The position numbers were made by a program, and so were the translations under genes. The notes beneath the pieces were generated by a model. That model did not search any database, had not been told where the DNA came from, and worked only from the letters and a program-made list of their open reading frames with translations. From a virus (taxonomy: Duplodnaviria; Heunggongvirae; Uroviricota; Caudoviricetes), in IMG/VR virus record IMGVR_UViG_2529292829_000008: DNA of 25,283 bases, one strand, 5' to 3'. Positions 1,447-25,283 of the stretch are shown piece after piece. The number at the start of each line of letters is the position of its first letter. Position 1 is the stretch's first letter.

Positions 1447-2016
1447 TTACCTAACGTACTTAATTGTTAAACTTATAATTTTCCCAATTATTTCAACATC
1501 TCCTATCTTGCACTCGAAGGCTCTGTTTCCACCTTCAACGAAGATTCTTCCACCGGGTAAACGAGTAATGTCGCGGATTGTTATTTCGCCATCAATACTT
1601 ATTACCCATTTACCGTCACGTATATCATCAAATTCTTTATCACAAATAAATTCAGAATTGTTATCTGTGATGACAAAAGGTTTTTTAAACGTAGAGGGTA
1701 GAAATCCCTTATCAAAAATATAAAAACCGTCTTCACGCAAGGCACCATCAGATAATACATATTTAGCAACTTCCATAGTATTTGTATTACCTGAAGTTTG
1801 CTTTGAACCATGTCCGGTTGTGAGCCAATTAAGCGAGGTGCCCGTTTCAAGGGCGCACTGGATTACCCATTCTGCTGGGAATGAGTCACGCATGTAGCGT
1901 GTGGCGAGTGTACTTTTAGAGATTCCTAAATGATCGCACAACGCCTGTCGAGTTTTGAATCCATAAGCTTCTACCATGCGCTCTATAGCGCCTCGTCCGC
2001 CTTTCTCCAAATTCAT
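1447..2016 (-). CDS. cI: CI-type immunity repressor (phage 186 CI-like, HTH N-terminal domain)
   Basis: ORF 1447..2022 with likely ATG at 2016 preceded by GGAG; HTH-like segment ...QALCDHLGISKSTLATRYMRD...; sits opposite apl/cII as in 186. No LexA-like S24 Ser-Lys motif seen. Confidence 0.7.
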   Translation of the reverse strand: MNLEKGGRGAIERMVEAYGFKTRQALCDHLGISKSTLATRYMRDSFPAEWVIQCALETGTSLNWLTTGHGSKQTSGNTNTMEVAKYVLSDGALREDGFYIFDKGFLPSTFKKPFVITDNNSEFICDKEFDDIRDGKWVISIDGEITIRDITRLPGGRIFVEGGNRAFECKIGDVEIIGKIISLTIKYVR

Positions 2017-2040
2017 GGTCACTCCAAGTGAACTTTTATC

Positions 2041-2363: not shown

Positions 2364-2395
2364 TTCGATTCTGAAATACATCAGAGGCATTGACC

Positions 2396-2905
2396 ATGTT
2401 TGATTACCAAGTTTCCAAACATCCACATTTTGATGAAGCCTGTCGTGCATTCGCATTGCGCCACAACCTAGTGCAACTGGCAGAACGTGCAGGCATGAAT
2501 GTGCAGATTCTGCGGAACAAGCTGAACCCAGCTCAACCTCATTTATTAACCGCACCAGAAATCTGGTTGCTTACCGATCTGACTGAAGATTCAACGCTGG
2601 TAGATGGCTTTCTGGCACAGATTCACTGCCTGCCATGTGTACCGATTAATGAGGTGGCAAAAGAGAAACTGCCGCATTACGTCATGAGTGCAACCGCAGA
2701 GATCGGGCGTGTTGCTGCAGGTGCGGTATCTGGCGATGTAAAAACCAGTGCAGGTCGTCGTGATGCTATCAGCAGCATTAACTCTGTAACACGACTGATG
2801 GCGCTGGCTGCTGTTTCATTGCAGGCCCGTTTACAGGCTAATCCTGCGATGGCGAGTGCAGTTGATACCGTGACTGGCCTCGGTGCTTCATTCGGTTTGC
2901 TGTGA
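2396..2905 (+). CDS. cII: CII-like lysogeny-establishment activator (phage 186 CII-like)
   Basis: From ATG 2396 the product is 169 aa, beginning [20 protein letters not shown]..., matching my recollection of 186 CII in start and length; AGAGG SD 8 nt upstream. Confidence 0.7.
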
Positions 2906-2912
2906 GGTGCTT

Positions 2913-3113
2913 ATGCTGACGAAAGAACCATCATTTGCATCGCTGCTGGTAAAACAAAGCCCGGCAATGCACTACGGTCACGGCTGGATCATGGGTGAGG
3001 ATGGAAAACGCTGGCATCCGTGCCGTTCACAAGATGAATTGCTGGCGGAACTATCAACGAATAAACGGGGGAACAAATGGCTATTGAAAGCGCTGCGGCG
3101 ACTGTTCCATTAA
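2913..3113 (+). CDS. Hypothetical early protein (position of 186 fil/dhr-type genes)
   Basis: ORF 2883..3113; ATG at 2913 after GAGG; 66 aa; function unknown. Confidence 0.4.
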   Translation: MLTKEPSFASLLVKQSPAMHYGHGWIMGEDGKRWHPCRSQDELLAELSTNKRGNKWLLKALRRLFH

Positions 3114-3418
3114 GCCCCGGTGAACGCCTGAATGGACTTAATCACATTGCGGAGTTAAGGGCGAAAGTATTTGGCCTGAATATTGAGTCAGAGCTTGAGC
3201 GGTTTATTAAAGATATGCGTGATCCACGGGATATCAATAACGAACAAAATAAACGGGCATTGGCTGCTATATTCTTTATGGCAAAAATTCCAGCTGAACG
3301 TCATAGCATCAGCATTAATGAGCTGACCACTGACGAAAAGCGGGAGTTGATTAAAGCAATGAATCATTTTCGTGCAGTGGTGAGCTTATTTCCCAGACGG
3401 CTAACCATGCCGAATTAA
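3077..3418 (+). CDS. Hypothetical early protein
   Basis: 113-aa ORF with ATG and a GGGGGA SD-like motif; same strand and context as early operon genes. Confidence 0.45.
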   Translation: MAIESAAATVPLSPGERLNGLNHIAELRAKVFGLNIESELERFIKDMRDPRDINNEQNKRALAAIFFMAKIPAERHSISINELTTDEKRELIKAMNHFRAVVSLFPRRLTMPN

Positions 3419-3719: not shown

Positions 3720-3946
3720 TGGCTGATGCAATGGATCTCGTCCAGCAGCGAGTTGAAGAAGAACGCCAACGTCATATCCGTGCTGCCCGTGCCAAAACGC
3801 CGGGCGTGTCCCGCGTGCTTTGCGTTGAGTGTGAAGCGCCAATTCCGCCAGCACGCCGTCGTGCCATTCCGGGTGTGCAGCTTTGCATTACCTGTCAGGA
3901 AATCGCAGAGCTGAAAGGCAAACATTACAACGGAGGTGCTGTATGA
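3719..3946 (+). CDS. TraR/DksA-family C4 zinc-finger protein
   Basis: 75 aa with C-x2-C-x19-C-x2-C (CVECEAPIPPARRRAIPGVQLCITCQ), the spacing pattern of phage/plasmid TraR-like DksA zinc fingers rather than Ogr (C-x2-C-x22-C-x4-C). Confidence 0.65.
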   Translation: MADAMDLVQQRVEEERQRHIRAARAKTPGVSRVLCVECEAPIPPARRRAIPGVQLCITCQEIAELKGKHYNGGAV

Positions 3947-4800
3947 GCACCATCCTGAAATGGGCGGGAAATAAACCCGCCATAATGTCCGAACTGAAAA
4001 AGCATCTTCCTGCTGGCCCGCGACTGGTTGAACCTTTCGCGGGTTCCTGTGCTGTGATGATGGAGACGGATTACCCCAGCTATCTTGTTGCGGATATTAA
4101 TCCTGATTTAATCAACCTCTATAAAAAGGTTGCTGCTGATTGTGAGGCGTTTATATCTCGTGCCAGAGCTTTATTTGAGGAAGCAAACAGGGAGGTGGCT
4201 TATTACAACATAAGGCAGGAGTTTAATTACTCCACTGAAATTACTGATTTCATGAAAGCGGTATATTTTCTGTATCTCAATCGTCATGGTTACCGTGGGT
4301 TATGTCGCTATAACAAGAGCGGGTATTTCAACATTCCCTACGGTAATTATAAAAATCCGTATTTCCCTGAAAAAGAAATTCGCGCATTTGCAGAGAAAGC
4401 CCAGCGAGCAACGTTTATCTGCGCCAGCTTTGATGAAACGCTGGCGATGCTGCAGGGGGGGGATGTGGTGTATTGCGATCCGCCTTATGACGGTACGTTT
4501 TCCGGTTATCACACTGACGGCTTCACTGAAGATGACCAGTATCACCTGGCATCCGTTCTTGAACATCGGTCATCAGAAGGACATCCCGTCATTGTTTCTA
4601 ACAGTGACACATCCCTGATCCGTTCGCTGTATCGCAATTTTACTCACCACTACATCAAGGCAAAACGCAGCATCGGTGTGGCAGCTGGTGATAGTAAATC
4701 TGCAACAGAAATCATTGCTGTTTCCGGGGCGCGCTGCTGGGTGGGATTTGATCCTTCGCGTGGCGTAGATAGTTCTGCTGTGTACGAGGTGCGTGTATGA
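3943..4800 (+). CDS. dam: DNA adenine methyltransferase, Dam-like (D12 class N6-A MTase)
   Basis: From ATG 3943 (GGAGG SD): KWAGNK near the N-terminus, FAGSCAV (motif I-like), [15 protein letters not shown], and catalytic DPPY ([10 protein letters not shown]); near-colinear with E. coli Dam as I recall it. Confidence 0.88.
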
Positions 4801-7363: not shown

Positions 7364-7552
7364 ATGCAGGACTATTTTTTGGAGTCTTTGAAGCTTCAGC
7401 GCATTGATTTTTTTCTTAAGCTTGTAGCGGCTAGTGAGTGTAGTGATGAAGAGAAGGGGCTGGCTCTGCAGTGGGTTTCTGAATTGACTGATGAACTTAT
7501 GGCAAAAATCAGAAGCCACGAATACAACCGCTCAATGGATATCATCAGCTGA
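7364..7552 (+). CDS. Small hypothetical protein, first gene of the LexA-boxed operon (possible Tum-like antirepressor component)
   Basis: 62-aa ORF with strong AGGAGGA SD; immediately downstream of the LexA box and upstream of the DinI-like gene. Confidence 0.4.
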   Translation: MQDYFLESLKLQRIDFFLKLVAASECSDEEKGLALQWVSELTDELMAKIRSHEYNRSMDIIS

Positions 7553-7562
7553 GGTGACTTTT

Positions 7563-7796
7563 ATGCGCATTGAAATAATGATCGATAAAGAGCAGAAGAT
7601 TAGCCAGTCTACCCTGGACGCCCTTGAATCCGAGCTTTACCGCAATCTGCGCCCCCTGTATCCCAAAACGGTAATTCGCATTCGCAAAGGTAGTTCTAAC
7701 GGTGTGGAACTAACCGGACTGCAACTGGATGAAGAAAGAAAACAAGTGATGAAAATTATGCAGAAGGTGTGGGAGGACGACAGCTGGCTGCATTAA
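7563..7796 (+). CDS. dinI: DinI-family protein
   Basis: From ATG 7563 (GAGGTGA SD): MRIEIMIDKEQKISQSTLDALESELYRNLRPLYP...VMKIMQKVWEDDSWLH, resembling E. coli DinI (MRIEVTIAK...ILQETWE...) in length and motifs. Confidence 0.7.
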   Translation: MRIEIMIDKEQKISQSTLDALESELYRNLRPLYPKTVIRIRKGSSNGVELTGLQLDEERKQVMKIMQKVWEDDSWLH

Positions 7797-8799: not shown

Positions 8800-10497
8800 A
8801 TGCATAGAATTGTTAAAGCTCATCTTGATAACTTCGTGAAAAGTCACGGTATTGAAAATCATCAAGAGGACACGCAGTTCGAGCTATTTTGTAATAAAGC
8901 TTTGCTGTCTTCTCGTATAAGTATGGATTATGAAATTGACGATGTAACAACCGGGGCTGGTGATGATGGCATGGATGGTGTTGCCATCATAATTGATGAA
9001 GAATTGTGTATATCTTCTGAAGATGCTACTTCAATATTTTCCTCATTACGTAAAAATCATGATGTTGATATTGTTTTCATTCAATCAAAGCGTAGTGAGT
9101 CTTTTGATTTAGGTGATTTTTTAAAGTTTAAAGCTTCCGTTTTTAGATTTATAGAGGATTCTCCTTACTTATGTGTGGATGAAATTCAAAAAAATGCAAG
9201 GGAAGTTTTTGATGTCATAATAAAAAATGTACCTAAGATAAGAGGTGGGCGACCAACTTTTACTGCTAAATATGTTGCAACTGGTTTATATAAAAAACCT
9301 AAAGAGTTAGAGAATGCTCGGAAGTTATTTGCAAAAGAAATTGACGAGTTGGGGTATTTCTGTAATGTTAGCGTTGAGTTTGTTGATCGTGATGAATTAA
9401 CACGTACTTGGATTGATACTTATTCAGTTGTCAATGCTGAATTGCCATTATTTAGTAATGCACCACTTCCCAAAATTAATGGTATAGAAGAAGCTTATCT
9501 TGCTGTCGTTAAAGCAAAGGATTTTGTTGGTAATTTATTGATGACGGACGAGGGGTCTCTCCGTAATCATGTTTTTGTTGAGAACGTCAGGGCGTTCTTG
9601 GGAATTGATAATCCTGTTAACGCATCGATTGCTGAGACAATTAAAAATAAAGATGCCGCTTCACGATTTCCTGTTTTAAATAATGGAATAACAATTGTTA
9701 GTCCGGATGTAAAACTTCAAGGGAGTATTTTACATCTAGAAAATTTTCAGATAGTTAATGGCTGTCAGACATCAAATGTGCTTTACGAATGCCGCGATTC
9801 CTTAGATGATACGATGATGGTTAACTTGAAAGTCGTAGAGACATTAAACGAAGATGTTTTTTCAGAATTGGTTCGAGCGACTAACAGTCAGACTAAAGTT
9901 GATGAGACTCAGTTCTATTCTCTTCGTCCAATAATAAAGAAAGTAGAAGCGTACTTTGATACTTATGAAGGGCAGGATGGTCGTTTATATTTAGAAAGAC
10001 GTGAAAGACAATTTATCGGTAGAGATATACCTGCAGTTAGAGTATTTTCAGTTCATATGGCAGCTAAATGTGTAGCAGCTATGTTCTTCCGTCGGCCAGA
10101 TCTTTCATATAGATACCCTAAAAAAATGTATGAATTGTTGGCTGAGAAAATATTTTCTAATGATACCAAGGAGATTGTATTTTATTCAGCATGTTTAACA
10201 TTATATAGATTACACTTACTTACTTCTAATGCTGATATTCCACAAAATATCAGGAAGTACAAATGGCATTTAATGGCGGTAGTTGGTGCTTTAATTGCCG
10301 GAAAGGATGTGCCTAATTTTGGATCTAAGAAAATGGATGCGTATTGTAATAAAATCATCACTGAAATGACAAAGCATGGTGATAAAATAAAAGCTACTTT
10401 CCAGAAGGCTGTTGATATTGTTTTGTCAATTGATGATATCACTGATGATAGAATGAAAAGGCAAGCTATTTTAGAGGAAATGCTTGCCAAGATTTAA
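8800..10497 (+). CDS. Low-GC cargo protein, candidate AIPR-like abortive-infection / defence protein
   Basis: 565-aa ORF, much more AT-rich than the backbone; sits between cos and the portal gene; contains ...FPVLNNGITIVSPDV...ENFQIVNGCQTSNVLYE... (DNA about 9751-9774), which I recall as resembling the conserved NGxQT core of the AIPR family. ORF call is solid; family assignment is tentative. Confidence 0.55.
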   Translation: MHRIVKAHLDNFVKSHGIENHQEDTQFELFCNKALLSSRISMDYEIDDVTTGAGDDGMDGVAIIIDEELCISSEDATSIFSSLRKNHDVDIVFIQSKRSESFDLGDFLKFKASVFRFIEDSPYLCVDEIQKNAREVFDVIIKNVPKIRGGRPTFTAKYVATGLYKKPKELENARKLFAKEIDELGYFCNVSVEFVDRDELTRTWIDTYSVVNAELPLFSNAPLPKINGIEEAYLAVVKAKDFVGNLLMTDEGSLRNHVFVENVRAFLGIDNPVNASIAETIKNKDAASRFPVLNNGITIVSPDVKLQGSILHLENFQIVNGCQTSNVLYECRDSLDDTMMVNLKVVETLNEDVFSELVRATNSQTKVDETQFYSLRPIIKKVEAYFDTYEGQDGRLYLERRERQFIGRDIPAVRVFSVHMAAKCVAAMFFRRPDLSYRYPKKMYELLAEKIFSNDTKEIVFYSACLTLYRLHLLTSNADIPQNIRKYKWHLMAVVGALIAGKDVPNFGSKKMDAYCNKIITEMTKHGDKIKATFQKAVDIVLSIDDITDDRMKRQAILEEMLAKI

Positions 10498-10584: not shown

Positions 10585-11619
10585 TTAAGCTAACTCAAGG
10601 CTATATGTATTGAATTTAATAATGTCATCTTCTACCCACTCATTAATTTCTTTGATTCTTTCCTGTAAGGGGGTTAATTCGTTACGGACGAATACCTTGC
10701 TGGCTTTTTCAATATCGCCAAATCCACCAGTGTTTTGTGGAATAATGCCCATCATCTGCGGAGGAACTCGATGTGCTGCCATCATGTCATCGCGACTGAC
10801 ATTTTTGATATTCAGAAACTCATCCTTCGCCGCGACTTCTGACAACGGGATGATCTGAAGCCCGTCCTTTTTGCCGTTAGGCGAGTACATAAACAAATTG
10901 CGGAAGTTGCCTGGACCTTTGGCACTTTTCATCGCGTTGCGGAGGTTGTTTACATCTTCCTGGTTTTGCGCGGCGTCGGTCATGTACATGATGAAGCCTG
11001 CATGACTGCCGTTAATGTAATACTTCCGGCGGAACAGCGTGGCGGACTCGTTGAGCAGGGCTGACGGAATGACAGAAAGATAGCCGGGCAGGCCGTAGAT
11101 TTCTTGATTAATATCCGGCTCCATCAGGTGAAAAATGCTGCCTTTCGTGAACTGATACGGCTGCGTGGTCATGCCGTATTGCACAAACCAGTAGGTATCC
11201 AGGTCTAACCCGCGTCGGGGGTATTTTGCCAGCGCAGGCTCAAGGGCGATAACTTCACCGAATCGGTTCGTGCGTTTCTCCAGGTAGGCGTTACCAAATA
11301 CCAGATAGTCCTGCACAAAACGCGAAAAAGCCTGCTGGCTGAGCAGCGGGGGGGGGATGTAGGTACTGGTCAGAATGTTGCATTTCACCGCAATTGGTGA
11401 ACTGTGATGCACGGCGGCGCGGAAGGTGCGCGCCAGTCCGTCAAAGCTTACTGGCGGCTCATACCAGCGATCTGTCTGTAAGCATTCCACATAGTCCAGC
11501 AGTTCGCGGCGGTCCAGAACAGGAACGGGATCACCGAAGCTGAATGCTTCGGCTGTAGTCTGGCTTTTATGCTGAATCTGGGTCGTCGCCGCAGCGCGCT
11601 TCTTCTTACTCTTTCCCAT
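10585..11619 (-). CDS. Q: Portal protein (P2 gpQ-like)
   Basis: 344 aa, same length as P2 gpQ; ...SFDGLARTFRAAVHHSSPIAVKCNIL...FRRKYYINGSHAGFIMYMTDAA... is colinear with my recollection of gpQ. Confidence 0.92.
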   Translation of the reverse strand: MGKSKKKRAAATTQIQHKSQTTAEAFSFGDPVPVLDRRELLDYVECLQTDRWYEPPVSFDGLARTFRAAVHHSSPIAVKCNILTSTYIPPPLLSQQAFSRFVQDYLVFGNAYLEKRTNRFGEVIALEPALAKYPRRGLDLDTYWFVQYGMTTQPYQFTKGSIFHLMEPDINQEIYGLPGYLSVIPSALLNESATLFRRKYYINGSHAGFIMYMTDAAQNQEDVNNLRNAMKSAKGPGNFRNLFMYSPNGKKDGLQIIPLSEVAAKDEFLNIKNVSRDDMMAAHRVPPQMMGIIPQNTGGFGDIEKASKVFVRNELTPLQERIKEINEWVEDDIIKFNTYSLELA

Positions 11620-13385
11620 TAAAAAATCTCCACAATATTGCTGGTATTGGCGGATTCGCCCTGCAGCGGTTCGTTAAACAATGCGTGCATCGTTGCCCAG
11701 GCCAGATCGGCATGGCTGGCTTCTTCGCTGCGGCTGGCTTCATAGGTCGGGCGGTTGCCGCTAGCGGTGGTGGCCCGACGGATTGCCATAAAGGACTGCG
11801 CTATGTCGGTGTGCCCGGCGTCAAACTCCAGGCGGCGGTGGCTAATAATGTCGTAGGCCTTGAGTACCAGGGCGTTTTTAACGTTGGGATTGTAGACAAA
11901 CTCCCGGACGGCAGGAAAGAACGCTTTCACGTTCTCGTAAACCCCGTGGCCGACGCCAGTTGAGTCGATGCCGATGTATGTCACGTTGTACTGTTCGGTC
12001 AGTTTTTTGATGGCGTCAGCCTGGGCGCGGAAGTCCATCCCGCGCCACTGGTGACGTTCAAGAATGCGAAACTTGCCGCCCGGCACGGCTGGCGGTGCCA
12101 CCACCACGCATCCAGCGCTGTCGCCGTTTTGTGTACCTTTTGCCGGGTCATAACCGATCCACACTTCGCGCCAGCCAAACGGGCGTAGCGCCAGTGCATG
12201 AAAGTCGGTCCAGACTTCCCAGCTGTCCACCATGCACGCCTGCAGCTCGCTGAGCGGGAAGACGGACGCGAGATCGTCCACGAACTCACACATCAGCAGG
12301 TTCTGGTATTCGTCCGGGCTGTACTCCATGCGCAACTGGTCGAGATCGAACAGGTTACATCCGCCGCGCACCGCATCTTCCACGGTGACTATCTGGCGGT
12401 ATTGCCCGTCTGCGCACAGCAGGCCGGGGGCCAGATTGTTGTGGGACAGGTCGATGTCCACCTTATCGGCTTTGTTGCGCCCACGGTTGAACAGCGCACC
12501 GGACCAGAACGGATAAGCACTGTGGGTCAGGCTGGATGGTGTGGAAAAATAGGTCTGTCGCCATTTCTTGTGAATAGCCATACCGGAAGCTACTTTGCGC
12601 AGCTCCTGGAATTTCGGTATCCAGAAATATTCATCCAGATACAGGTTGCCGTGGTAACTCTGGGCAGTGCGGGCATTGGTGCCGAGGAAGTAAAGCGTGG
12701 CCCCGTTAGGAAGCACCATCGGATCGCCTTTCAGCTCCACCTCCACTTCTTTGGCGAAGTCGATGATGTACTGCTTAAAGACGTGGGCCTGAGCCTTGCT
12801 GGCGGAAAGGAAAATCTGGTTACGCCCGGTTAGCAGGGCGTCAATCAGGGCTTCACGGGCAAAATAGAAGGTCGCGCCGATCTGGCGTGACTTCAGCAGG
12901 TTGCGGATGCGGTTGGTTTTTCCGGCTTCCCACCAGTGGCGCTGGTAGTTGAACATGGAGGAATGGAAGATTTCTTCCAGCTTCTCAATCTGTTCATCGG
13001 TGAAAACGTTCTTTTCCGGCTGACGGCGCGGGCCTTTGTTGCGGTTGGCGACGTTAGGGTTTAAGTCGGCTTCGTTGCCGCCATTGTTAAACTTGCCGAT
13101 GCGCGCGTGGCGCTCCGACTGGCGCGCCAGCAGGTCAATCTCTTTGAAATCTTTCCCTTCTTTGTGCTCCTTCATAATGAGCTGGCAGTAGCGGGCGGCG
13201 GTGGTGAGCTGCATCTGATCCAGCGGCCCATAGTCACCCCACTTGTCGCGTTTCTTCCAGCTGTGAACGGTTGCAACTTTCTCGCCCAGCATTTCAGCAA
13301 TGCGGGCTACGCGATATCCCTGAAAGTACAGCAGCATGGCCTGCCGACGGGGATCGAGATCTGCGGGTGTCAGTGTGGTGTTCAT
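11619..13385 (-). CDS. P: Terminase large (ATPase) subunit (P2 gpP-like)
   Basis: 588-aa ORF directly upstream of and overlapping the portal gene start; length and position match P2 gpP. Confidence 0.9.
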   Translation of the reverse strand: MNTTLTPADLDPRRQAMLLYFQGYRVARIAEMLGEKVATVHSWKKRDKWGDYGPLDQMQLTTAARYCQLIMKEHKEGKDFKEIDLLARQSERHARIGKFNNGGNEADLNPNVANRNKGPRRQPEKNVFTDEQIEKLEEIFHSSMFNYQRHWWEAGKTNRIRNLLKSRQIGATFYFAREALIDALLTGRNQIFLSASKAQAHVFKQYIIDFAKEVEVELKGDPMVLPNGATLYFLGTNARTAQSYHGNLYLDEYFWIPKFQELRKVASGMAIHKKWRQTYFSTPSSLTHSAYPFWSGALFNRGRNKADKVDIDLSHNNLAPGLLCADGQYRQIVTVEDAVRGGCNLFDLDQLRMEYSPDEYQNLLMCEFVDDLASVFPLSELQACMVDSWEVWTDFHALALRPFGWREVWIGYDPAKGTQNGDSAGCVVVAPPAVPGGKFRILERHQWRGMDFRAQADAIKKLTEQYNVTYIGIDSTGVGHGVYENVKAFFPAVREFVYNPNVKNALVLKAYDIISHRRLEFDAGHTDIAQSFMAIRRATTASGNRPTYEASRSEEASHADLAWATMHALFNEPLQGESANTSNIVEIF

Positions 13386-13431
13386 GGCACAAACCTACAG
13401 CCTTGAATGAAGGCTTTCCCCGCCTGCGGTT

Positions 13432-13449
13432 TGTGTGGTTGTCGGTACA
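13432..13449. promoter_or_regulatory. Candidate Ogr/B-dependent late promoter element (TGT-N12-ACA) in the P/O divergent region
   Basis: TGTGTGGTTGTCGGTACA; its centre is about 55 bp upstream of a plausible start site roughly 30 nt before the O ATG (13528), the geometry of P2 late promoters. Confidence 0.5.
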
Positions 13450-13527
13450 AATACCGCACATTGTTTCACTGCCCCCATCACCGCAACCATAAGGCTCCAG
13501 TAAGTTTTTTCTAACGGAGCACGGCTC

Positions 13528-14361
13528 ATGACAGTGAAAGCAAAGCGTTTTCGCATCGGGGGGGAAGGTGCCACCACCGACGGGCGCGAAATCCAGCGTG
13601 AATGGCTGGAACAGATGGCAGCCAGCTACAACCCGGCGGTGTATACCGCGCTGATTAACCTTGAGCACATCAAGTCTTATCTGCCGGACAGCACCTTTAA
13701 CCGCTACGGCAAGGTGACGGCGCTGTTTGCTGAAGAAATCACGGAAGGTCCGCTGGCGGGCAAGATGGCGCTGTATGCCGACGTTGAGCCAACGGAATCC
13801 CTGGTGGCGCTGGTGAAAAAAGGCCAGAAATTATTCACCTCTATGGAAGTCAGCCCGAAGTTCGCTGATACGGGCAAAGCCTACCTGGTCGGCCTGGCTG
13901 CCACTGATGACCCTGCCAGTCTGGGTACGGAAATGCTGACATTCAGCGCCAGTGCAGCTCATAACCCGCTGGCAAACCGCAAGCAGAATCCTGCAAATCT
14001 CTTTACCGCTGCAGAGGAAACGGTGATCGAACTGGAAGAAATCCAGAATGACAAACCGTCCCTGTTTGCCCGAGTCACGGCGTTGTTTACCAAAAAAGAG
14101 CAGTCCGATGACGCCCGGTTCTCTGATGTGCATAAGGCCGTGGAGCTGGTCGCCACTGAGCAGCAGAACCTGAGCGCACGCACCGAAAAATCCCTGTCTG
14201 AGCAGGAAGAACGCCTGTCTGAGCTGGAGACTGCCCTGCAGGCACAGCAGACCGCCTTTAACGAACTGGTGGACAAGCTGAGCCAAGAAGACAGCCGCCA
14301 GGACTACCGCCAGCGTGCAACAGGCGGTAACGCCCCCGCTGACACTCTGACCAATTGCTGA
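13528..14361 (+). CDS. O: Capsid scaffolding protein (P2 gpO-like)
   Basis: 277 aa; ...RIGGEGATTDGREI...INLEHIKSYLPD...YLVGLAATDDPASLGTE...SDDARFSDVHKAV...ATGG...TNC, colinear with P2 gpO. Confidence 0.9.
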   Translation: MTVKAKRFRIGGEGATTDGREIQREWLEQMAASYNPAVYTALINLEHIKSYLPDSTFNRYGKVTALFAEEITEGPLAGKMALYADVEPTESLVALVKKGQKLFTSMEVSPKFADTGKAYLVGLAATDDPASLGTEMLTFSASAAHNPLANRKQNPANLFTAAEETVIELEEIQNDKPSLFARVTALFTKKEQSDDARFSDVHKAVELVATEQQNLSARTEKSLSEQEERLSELETALQAQQTAFNELVDKLSQEDSRQDYRQRATGGNAPADTLTNC

Positions 14362-19349: not shown

Positions 19350-20795
19350 TTAATGAGTTTTAAGTGCCTCTGTTAAAGATTTTCGATGATGTTCCCAAAA
19401 GGCAAAATCATTTACGTTTGAACTAAACCTCAAATGCTCTTCAGAATATATTGTTTCACGGTGATCGCATCCAAGAAGACATAGAATTAATCTGGTTAGA
19501 TATATTGTTAAGTGTTCACAAGCAACTGCAATGTTTATCAAGTTGTCACTTGGTATAATTACACCATGTATAATTATATTTCTGATTTCAGAAAGTCCTA
19601 GCTTACCAGATTCATTAAATAATGGCCATAAGTCATGAGTATGGATTAAATGTTCTTTAAGAAATTCTTGTGTGGCATCTTTTAATGATATTCTATTCAG
19701 TTCTCCTAGTTTGCTTTTTATTTTTCCTCTAGTTGTTGAATCTTTGATAACGTCCTTGGTGATGACTCTTTCAATTGTTTGTCTTAATGATTTAAACTCG
19801 CTTTCACATAGAATGAAGGTCGTATTGTTTTTTTCTTTATGAGTTAAGATAATAGATTCAAAAGATTGGAAAAGTGAAAGGTATCGAGACTCAAGATATT
19901 GGTTTGATGCATTGAGGACATTAATGGCTAATCGGATGTTCTGTCTGTAATGGGATGACAAATATGTGTGAAACATATTTTCAATATTTTCTTTGGCTTG
20001 TGATGGCATCATTAAGTGTTCTTTTTTGGTATCCTTAATAGGATTTTTTATCCTACAGCGAAAAACTGTATATACACCATCATTAGATTTTAGGTTCAAG
20101 TAACGACAAACTACTTTGTTACTATTGATAAATGATAAGATATCATTAAATGCGTCAATTTTGTCAATGTAGTTGTTTCTTACATCATCAATGGTTAAAT
20201 TAGAATTGTTGGGCTTTATTTTTAGGATTTGTTTTGTGCTGATTTCAAATTTTTCATTGCGTTCTAGTTTTAATTCGATATCTAATTTTATATCTTCGTC
20301 ATTGTTAAGTTTAACAATAATAGACTCTGGCTTTGTAAGAGTGATGTTACCATTCGAAGATAAATTGTACTGAATGTTAGGGGAAAGTAGTTGATGGTCA
20401 CTGTTGTAGAATGTTATTTCCGTATCAGGCGTATTATGTGCTTTATTATTTATAATGACTTCATTGGGAATGATGTTAAATGTATAGTATTGAGTTTTTC
20501 CTGAGTGACGGTCGACGATGTTTTCTATTCTACAATCGATTAGTTTTATCACTGAGCGAATATCACCATTTACATAATGAGTGCAAAATTCAATGTCTAA
20601 ATTATTTTTTCCATAAAGCTTGATGGTTTTTTTACTATAGGTCTTTATCTGAATCCTATCCCAGCTTTCTTTATTGTTGACAGTAACATTGCAAGTCATT
20701 TTGATACTGTTTTCTGTTTTTATATTATCGTCATTAATAGTAATTGGGTTGTGGTCATAAGAAAAAGTAACTTTAATTGATTCATACGTGTTCAC
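19350..20795 (-). CDS. Low-GC cargo protein with C-terminal HEPN-like R-N-x3-H motif (candidate abortive-infection RNase)
   Basis: 481-aa ORF, antisense to the flanking tail genes; GTG start with perfect AAGGAG SD; very AT-rich; N/K/I-rich N-terminal two-thirds; C-terminal region contains SEIRNIIIHG (DNA 19566-19583). ORF call is solid; function is a hypothesis. Confidence 0.6.
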   Translation of the reverse strand: MNTYESIKVTFSYDHNPITINDDNIKTENSIKMTCNVTVNNKESWDRIQIKTYSKKTIKLYGKNNLDIEFCTHYVNGDIRSVIKLIDCRIENIVDRHSGKTQYYTFNIIPNEVIINNKAHNTPDTEITFYNSDHQLLSPNIQYNLSSNGNITLTKPESIIVKLNNDEDIKLDIELKLERNEKFEISTKQILKIKPNNSNLTIDDVRNNYIDKIDAFNDILSFINSNKVVCRYLNLKSNDGVYTVFRCRIKNPIKDTKKEHLMMPSQAKENIENMFHTYLSSHYRQNIRLAINVLNASNQYLESRYLSLFQSFESIILTHKEKNNTTFILCESEFKSLRQTIERVITKDVIKDSTTRGKIKSKLGELNRISLKDATQEFLKEHLIHTHDLWPLFNESGKLGLSEIRNIIIHGVIIPSDNLINIAVACEHLTIYLTRLILCLLGCDHRETIYSEEHLRFSSNVNDFAFWEHHRKSLTEALKTH

Positions 20796-20810: not shown

Positions 20811-20828
20811 TGTGTGGTAAGCGACACA
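20811..20828. promoter_or_regulatory. Candidate Ogr/B-dependent late promoter element (TGT-N12-ACA) upstream of V
   Basis: TGTGTGGTAAGCGACACA, sharing the TGTGTGGT start with the dyad at 13432; it is unusually close to the V ATG (20875) for a -55 centre and overlaps the SD of the divergent cargo gene. Confidence 0.4.
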
Positions 20829-24643: not shown

Positions 24644-25072
24644 ATGTACGTATGGAGCGCTAAAGCAAATGGCTTTTTCCCCATATCGGAGAAAGAAAAA
24701 TTTGAGGCATCAGGTCTGTGGCCTGATGATGGTGTAATAGTCAGTGAGGAAGAACATAAAAAGTTATTTATGGATATTCCACCAGGAAAACAGATTGGAA
24801 CACTGAATGGAAAACCAGCACTGATAGATATTCCTCAGCCGACCAAAAAGGAATTAATAGCTATTGCTGAAGTTAAAAAATCCCAATTACGGGAAAAAGC
24901 TGACAGTGAAATATCCTGGCGTCAGGATGCTGTTGATGCTGATATCGCAACTGATGAAGAAACTTCAACTCTCACCGAATGGAAGAAATACCGTGTGCTG
25001 CTGATGCGTGTTGATACTTCAACAGCACCCGATATTGAATGGCCTACGCCTCCGGCAGTTCAGGCCAGATGA
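24644..25072 (+). CDS. G: Tail fibre assembly (chaperone) protein G
   Basis: 142 aa directly after H; C-terminus ...[27 protein letters not shown] is the conserved tail-fibre-assembly ending. Confidence 0.8.
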
Positions 25073-25283
25073 CATCCGGCGCGGTGCTGGTATCTGTTGC
25101 CGTCACCGCGTCAATGTAATCCAGCACGGCGTTAAGTCGGGTTGTTTCTGCCTGAGTCAGTTTCCGTCCGGCCTGTAATTTCAGCTGAATCAGACTAATG
25201 GAAGCCATTGCTGCATCAATCAGTGACTGGCGCTGTGCTTCTGCTGCTTCTACTGCGGCGTTATGCTGTGCCTCAGTATCTGT
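25044..25283 (-). CDS. Second tail fibre assembly protein, convergent, 3' end only (5' end beyond window)
   Basis: Manual minus-strand translation, open to the window edge: [79 protein letters not shown], stop at 25044-25046; same C-terminal family signature as G and overlaps the G 3' end by about 29 bp. Absent from the ORF track because no start codon lies inside the window. Confidence 0.7.

Follow-up and report, generated by a model that had tools for sequence, protein, structure and literature searches.

The window, by which we mean the whole stretch of 25,283 nucleotides analysed here, is a P2-like (Peduoviridae) prophage in which the gene for the large terminase subunit (P) and that for the capsid scaffold/protease (O) point away from each other. 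The two start codons, that of P at 13385 on the minus strand and that of O at 13528, are separated by a spacer of 142 bp, which holds the sequence TGTGTGGTTGTCGGTACA at 13432-13449. This sequence reads TGT, 12 nt and ACA and has its centre at 13440.5. This reading confirms the element that had been placed between P and O in the original prediction, and the partial dyad TGT-N12-ACA of P2-type late promoters is thereby present in its exact form. The P/O region is 98-99% identical to the corresponding regions of Escherichia phage 500465-1 and Klebsiella phage 4LV2017. The genes and the predicted elements discussed below are collected in Table 1.

Table 1. Genes and predicted regulatory elements of the P/O region, of gene V and of the early region, with positions in the window.
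Feature	Position	Strand	Basis
Gene P, large terminase subunit	11619..13385	-	Pfam Terminase_5, Terminase_6N and Terminase_6C
Predicted pP transcription start (A of the P ATG)	13385..13385	-	55.5-bp spacing, as to the mapped P2 P start
Predicted pP -10, TAGGTT on the minus strand	13392..13397	-	-12 to -7 from the A of the P ATG
Predicted activator (Ogr/B-type) dyad, TTGT-N12-ACAA	13431..13450		Alignment to annotated P2/186 sites and arm invariance
-35-like element of pO, TTGTTT	13461..13466	+	TTGT at offsets 76-79 invariant in 79/79
Predicted pO -10, AACCAT	13485..13490	+	AA[C/A]CAT at a constant place in 72/79, displaced by 1 nt in 7/79
Shine-Dalgarno of O, GGAG	13516..13519	+	8 nt before the ATG, inside the predicted ~30-nt leader
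Gene O, capsid scaffold/protease	13528..14361	+	Pfam Phage_GPO, E 3e-112
Second late-promoter dyad (predicted), TGTGTGGTAAGCGACACA, pV	20811..20828		Centre 20819.5, 55.5 bp from the A of the V ATG (20875)
CI gene	1447-2022	-	
CII gene	2390-2905	+	
DinI/Tum-like gene	7491-7796	+	
Dam-type methyltransferase gene	3883-4800	+	

The conservation of the spacer was followed in P/O regions gathered from 80 species-representative bacterial genomes and 80 viral contigs, in which both start codons were placed by tblastn. The clade was cut at a P N-terminus at least 80% identical to that of the window, a criterion that avoids selecting on the motif, and the 134 loci obtained in this way all carry an exact TGT-N12-ACA at the same place. 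These loci represent 79 distinct spacers and 29 distinct versions of the 18-mer, and the distinct spacers have diverged to a mean pairwise identity of 73%, with a minimum of 44%. Among the first 110 columns of the spacer just 19 never vary, and these cluster in TTGT (offsets 46-49 from the P start), ACAA (62-65), the pP -10, a second TTGT (76-79) and an A at offset 100, the hexamer adjoining the P ATG contributing three positions. The arms TTGT and ACAA of the dyad are constant in all 79 distinct relatives, while the 12 nt between them vary.

The annotated activator sites of P2 and 186 allow a direct comparison. The P2 record (NC_001895) has one "activator binding site; pO, pP promoters" (feature 3057-3087) and gives transcription starts at 3016 (minus) for the P operon and at 3127 (plus) for the O operon, each 55.5 bp from the centre of the dyad TGTGTCAGTGATAAGCCA; the 186 record (NC_001317) has one "B protein" site (feature 3798-3817) for "activation of pV and p12 promoters". 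When all three sequences are aligned, the dyad of the window falls on both annotated sites. It shares the whole left half, TGTGTGG, with 186, while the match to P2 extends over the left arm, the -10 positions and the place of the -35-like element of pO, between homologous P and O genes whose O proteins are ~44-48% identical. In P2 as in the window, where this is a prediction, one partial dyad serves two divergent late promoters, and the activator is of the same Ogr_Delta family, as found in relatives of the window. The late-promoter architecture of P2 and 186 that had been proposed for the divergent spacer is thus well supported by the alignment, and the predicted site is on these grounds homologous to the activator sites annotated for pP/pO in P2 and for p12/pV in 186. 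These two annotated sites are imperfect and read TGT-N12-CCA, the right arm of 186 being CCA, whereas the window has a perfect TTGT-N12-ACAA and therefore fits the published consensus better than the model phages do. A further difference concerns the P gene, which in P2 has a 23-nt leader with a GAGG ribosome-binding site and a distance of 78.5 bp from the dyad centre to the ATG, against 55.5 bp in the window; the P homologue of 186 is also leadered, with the same 78.5 bp.

Sites of this type have been described in other members of the family. In Smp131 a single TGT-N12-ACA motif was assigned to both PP' and PO' (PMC3931495), and in phiRSY1/phiRSA1 the motif TGTTGT-N13-ACAACA lies upstream of the same late operons (PMC5694545), both being sequence predictions with unmapped starts. 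The spacer of 13 nt is found in the Ralstonia, Burkholderia and Pseudomonas lineages, as compared with 12 nt in the window. Prediction of late promoters from such dyads is routine in genome papers on P2-like phages (PMC3931495, PMC5694545), and the present site is a prediction of this known kind.

On the rightward side, the predicted -10 of pO begins 18 bp beyond TTGTTT and aligns with the P2/186 hexamer GAAACT, located 7 nt upstream of the mapped P2 O start (3127). Burkholderia AP3 has a TTG at the same distance from the dyad as the -35-like element, and in relatives from Ralstonia and Aeromonas the TTG is displaced by one or two bases at most. Since AACCAT is a weak -10 with a pyrimidine 7 nt beyond it, the O start can be placed only within about 3 nt; it is predicted at ~13496-13499, with the dyad centre ~56-58 bp away. 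The original prediction had put the dyad at about -55 from the O promoter, and the value of about -56 reached here from P2 homology and from the conserved -35-like and -10-like elements agrees with it. For promoters of this class the dyad is centred at about -55, with a range of -55 to -58, and the distances annotated elsewhere are 56.5-58.5 bp for P2 pF and 57.5 bp for 186 pJ. A Shine-Dalgarno core is present upstream of O in all 79 distinct relatives, and the O ATG stands anywhere between 81.5 and 100.5 bp from the dyad, so that the length of the O leader appears free to change. A promoter scan of 13300-13620 returned no consensus sigma-70 promoter, which fits activator-dependent promoters. 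Sigma-70-type -10 elements are present and a consensus -35 is absent, a TTG at -35 being kept in pO and none in pP.

The leftward side has a different geometry. At every one of the 134 loci 55.5 bp separate the dyad centre from the first base of the P ATG, with no indels. The hexamer next to the ATG has T(-12), A(-11) and T(-7) unchanged in 79/79 distinct sequences and otherwise varies (TAGGTT in 28, TATGTT in 22, TATTTT in 13, TAGGCT in 7, TAGTCT in 6 and TAATCT in 3), and it aligns with TAGCCT, the pP hexamer of P2, which occupies -12 to -7 relative to the P start mapped in that phage (3016). The start codon of P is ATG in all 79, and a Shine-Dalgarno 4-mer precedes it in only 28, compared with 79/79 for O. 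The window thus has what is looked for in a leaderless gene, of which lambda cI is an example, namely a -10 ending 6-7 nt before the ATG and no conserved Shine-Dalgarno sequence. The fixed 55.5-bp spacing, the TAnnnT at -12 to -7 and the lack of a conserved ribosome-binding site together suggest that the P mRNA of this prophage lineage is probably leaderless, with leftward transcription starting exactly on the A of the P ATG, a reading that we favour with some reservation. The 78.5 bp between dyad and P ATG in P2 and 186 can be accounted for in the same scheme, as 55.5 bp to the mapped P2 start plus a leader of 23 nt.

There is no in-frame start upstream of the ATG at 13385, and in the N-terminal alignment the motif DPRRQA, which is conserved with P2 and 186, precedes the internal Met17; the ATG at 13385 is therefore taken as the true start of P. 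The internal Met17, which is the start used in the NC_047818 annotation, was rejected, as DPRRQA would be left out and Terminase_5 of Pfam already matches from residue 11. In that RefSeq entry of Klebsiella phage 4LV2017 (NC_047818, L004 13949-15667) gpP is begun at the internal ATG and loses DPRRQA, and the mis-start was probably caused by a true start without a ribosome-binding site.

A -10 adjoining the P ATG was seen by eye in prophages of Rahnella, Serratia, the Sodalis group, Pectobacterium and Yersinia, and likewise in Burkholderia AP3, a Ralstonia phage, Aeromonas LPM4, phiCTX and Vibrio K139. A P leader of 23-28 nt with a ribosome-binding site is found in P2, 186 and some Enterobacter, Serratia and Edwardsiella prophages, and some of the leadered P genes of this group have an inverted repeat inside the leader. 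As the -10-at-ATG geometry recurs in so many other prophages and phages, P2 and 186 may be the exceptions in the family with regard to the P leader. The 23-nt P leader of P2 (2994-3016, GTATTCATCACGGCGAGGTATTC before the ATG) contains the direct repeat GTATTCAT, and a short duplication in a leaderless ancestor may have created this leader. In the literature searched, the primary P2 papers lying outside it, neither P nor V of a P2-like phage was described as leaderless.

Gene V offers an internal control for the leaderless geometry, because the P2 record puts the V transcription start on the V ATG, which implies a leaderless V. In P2 the dyad centre lies ~55-57 bp from the A of the V start codon; the value is 55.5 bp for V of the window and, by prediction, for its P. 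A leaderless P is not the arrangement of P2, whereas the start of V on its ATG is annotated there. The V upstream regions of the relatives comprise 37 distinct sequences, many of them unrelated, different cargo genes being present there. In spite of this, an exact TGT-N12-ACA is present in all 37; its centre lies 54.5-57.5 bp away from the V ATG, and in 30 of them at exactly 55.5 bp. The leadered genes O and F lack a near-fixed dyad-to-ATG spacing of 55.5 bp, and in two complete relatives (L003, L004) a dyad lies 83.5-85.5 bp upstream of the tail-sheath gene. Of the late morphogenetic operons of P2-type phages (P-Q, O-S, V-G and F-D), those at P/O and at V are preceded by dyads in the window, the F operon being outside it.

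Next to the V dyad the window has a gene for a 481-aa protein at 19350-20795 (-), in the slot between S and V that is taken by orf30 in P2. The start codon is GTG, and the GGAG ribosome-binding site ends 2 nt before the V dyad. The gene is absent from the relatives L003 and L004. A sub-threshold match to DUF7239 was the sole Pfam match of its product, and PADLOC gave none.

The activator had been expected outside the window, and this is in line with our search. A tblastn search for an Ogr/Delta homologue in the window gave nothing significant, and the lone zinc-finger-like pattern sits in a non-coding frame. Two close relatives of the window (NC_049342 and NC_047818) have, directly after gene D, a protein of 72-78 aa of the Ogr_Delta family (Pfam PF04606, E 9e-21; CX2CX22CX4C), which shares 54-63% identity with P2 Ogr and 186 B. 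The window appears to correspond to the final 25.3 kb of contig AQDU01000088.1, and its right end (about 24644-25283) falls in the tail-fibre region, where the contig stops about 640 bp past the tail-fibre gene H. Among complete E. coli genomes the best match is 96.8% identical over 82% of the query. Because the contig ends in this tail-fibre/assembly region, the rest of the prophage, including the ogr gene expected from the relatives, must be on another contig. In a related contig (L165) an invertase lies next to rearranged tail genes.

The early region of the prophage is 186-like and not P2-like, with a CI repressor that has a C-terminal domain, CII (CP76) and a DinI/Tum-like protein, and the prophage is probably SOS-inducible. 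A Dam-type N6-adenine methyltransferase is also encoded in this region. Since the early region resembles that of 186, the regulatory logic of the prophage may resemble that of B more than that of Ogr. At roughly the old/tin place of P2, flanked by the DinI-like gene and Q, the window has a gene (8800-10497, +) for a 565-aa AIPR/AbiU-type abortive-infection protein (Pfam PF10592, E 1.5e-43; PADLOC AbiU, E 4e-112), and relatives of the window have retrons or other defence genes in this slot.

Overall, we consider it about 90% probable that the dyad is a single site for the Ogr/B-family C4 zinc-finger late activator of the prophage, common to the two divergent late promoters. The activator, whose gene would follow D outside the window, at the right end of the prophage, would be made after induction and would bind TTGT-N12-ACAA centred at 13440.5, midway between the two promoters. 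From about -55 it would recruit or stabilise sigma-70 RNA polymerase on promoters that have a usable -10 and a poor -35. In P2, late activation proceeds via the alpha subunit of RNA polymerase. Rightward transcription from ~13496-13499 would then give the late operon that starts with O, and leftward transcription from at or next to 13385 would give P and Q. Binding, start sites and activator dependence are what we infer here from the sequence.

A motif with only six specified bases has little information, and it could be asked whether its presence between P and O is a chance occurrence without function. The counts by themselves do point in that direction. The window has three exact TGT-N12-ACA matches compared with 6.67 +/- 2.64 in dinucleotide shuffles, so that the motif is not enriched and enrichment was dropped as evidence. 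The weight-matrix scan that the original prediction had called for was run with a matrix of six sites from the model phages (P2 supplied three annotated sites and 186 two, to which we added a 186 orf32 site of our own choice), and it did not single out the site, which ranks only 28th of 50,528 positions and scores under the shuffle maxima; the matrix, in which the uninformative spacer columns dominate, was dropped as a discriminator. The statement that there is only one dyad holds for the P/O spacer, which has a single conserved dyad, but two further exact matches had been missed, namely the V dyad and one at 13374..13391 (TGTGGTGTTCATGGCACA). The latter spans the start codon of P, its left arm falling in codons of the P N-terminus (Thr-Thr), and it is rejected as a coincidence since its ACA arm varies in the relatives; that an evidently accidental match occurs so near is itself a point for chance. 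The bare motif, then, proves nothing alone, and the case for a real site is made by position and conservation. At the shuffle density of ~2.6e-4 per position, two matches that lie no more than a few bases from where P2 predicts them, one aligned to the P2/186 site and the other 55.5 bp from the V ATG, have an estimated joint probability of the order of 1e-6. The arms are invariant in 134/134 relatives while the core varies, and the motif is kept at the same distance in all 37 unrelated V upstream regions. These conservation data effectively refute chance, to which we give hardly any weight.

If the site is real, it could still activate pO only, with P read from a separate upstream promoter that has a degenerate site of its own and gives an ordinary leader. 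The original prediction had left the leftward promoter as either shared or degenerate. A one-armed TGT at 13463-13465 (within TGTTTCACTGCCCCCATC, 13463-13480), a one-mismatch dyad at that place in a few relatives, ~57 bp from the O ATG, and the AGGT within TAGGTT 7 nt before the P ATG, a possible weak ribosome-binding site on a longer transcript, would be consistent with such a separate promoter. However, the element at 13463 keeps TTGT alone and stands at the expected -35 place of pO, so that it was discarded as a degenerate second dyad for pP and read as the -35-like element of pO. A leadered P start needs a dyad ~20-25 bp further to the right, and none is conserved there. The AGGT is replaced in 51 of the 79 distinct sequences by -10-like and not ribosome-binding-like sequences (TATGTT, TATTTT and others), T-12, A-11 and T-7 remaining unchanged in all, and P2 and 186 have one site for both promoters. 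A separate promoter for P thus seems unlikely. With one dyad, both predicted starts ~55.5 bp away from it and no second conserved dyad, the data support a site shared by pP and pO, and of the two options left by the original prediction it is the shared promoter that appears to apply. It is less likely still that the dyad is bound by some other regulator, for example CRP of the host or a repressor or excisionase of the phage. Its arms TGTG (left) and ACA (right) do resemble CRP half-sites, and with a 186-like early region (CI, CII, DinI/Tum-like) other phage regulators are present. The CRP site is TGTGA-N6-TCACA, though, and its arms equal TGT-N10-ACA, whereas the spacing here is N12 in 134/134 loci and never N10, with N11 in Rahnella and N13 in Burkholderia, Ralstonia, Aeromonas and phiCTX. 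The same motif is moreover found, at the spacing known for Ogr/B, before each late operon checked, these being P/O and V in the window and its relatives and the sheath operon in two relatives. An RNA hairpin or terminator was also considered for the dyad and rejected, the fold z-score being -1.1 and the "terminator-like" match trivial; no Rfam family matched in the window.

The present data leave the understanding of P2-type late control unchanged, and the putative leaderless terminase mRNA is the sole mildly novel element. Their value for annotation is that predicted late promoters are located for a very common Klebsiella/Escherichia P2-like prophage lineage, and a shared site explains why a single dyad lies between P and O. 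The dyad also marks the sequence through which P4-like satellites could trans-activate the late genes of their helper. Gene callers that need a ribosome-binding site can mis-start P, as seen for NC_047818. Should mapping of the starts bear out the leaderless P mRNA, the terminase gene would, like V, belong to the late genes that are translated from leaderless transcripts. The P/O spacer would then be a natural and conserved divergent promoter pair, one leaderless and one leadered, under one activator site, and such a pair would be useful for studying the balance of the two translation modes late in infection.
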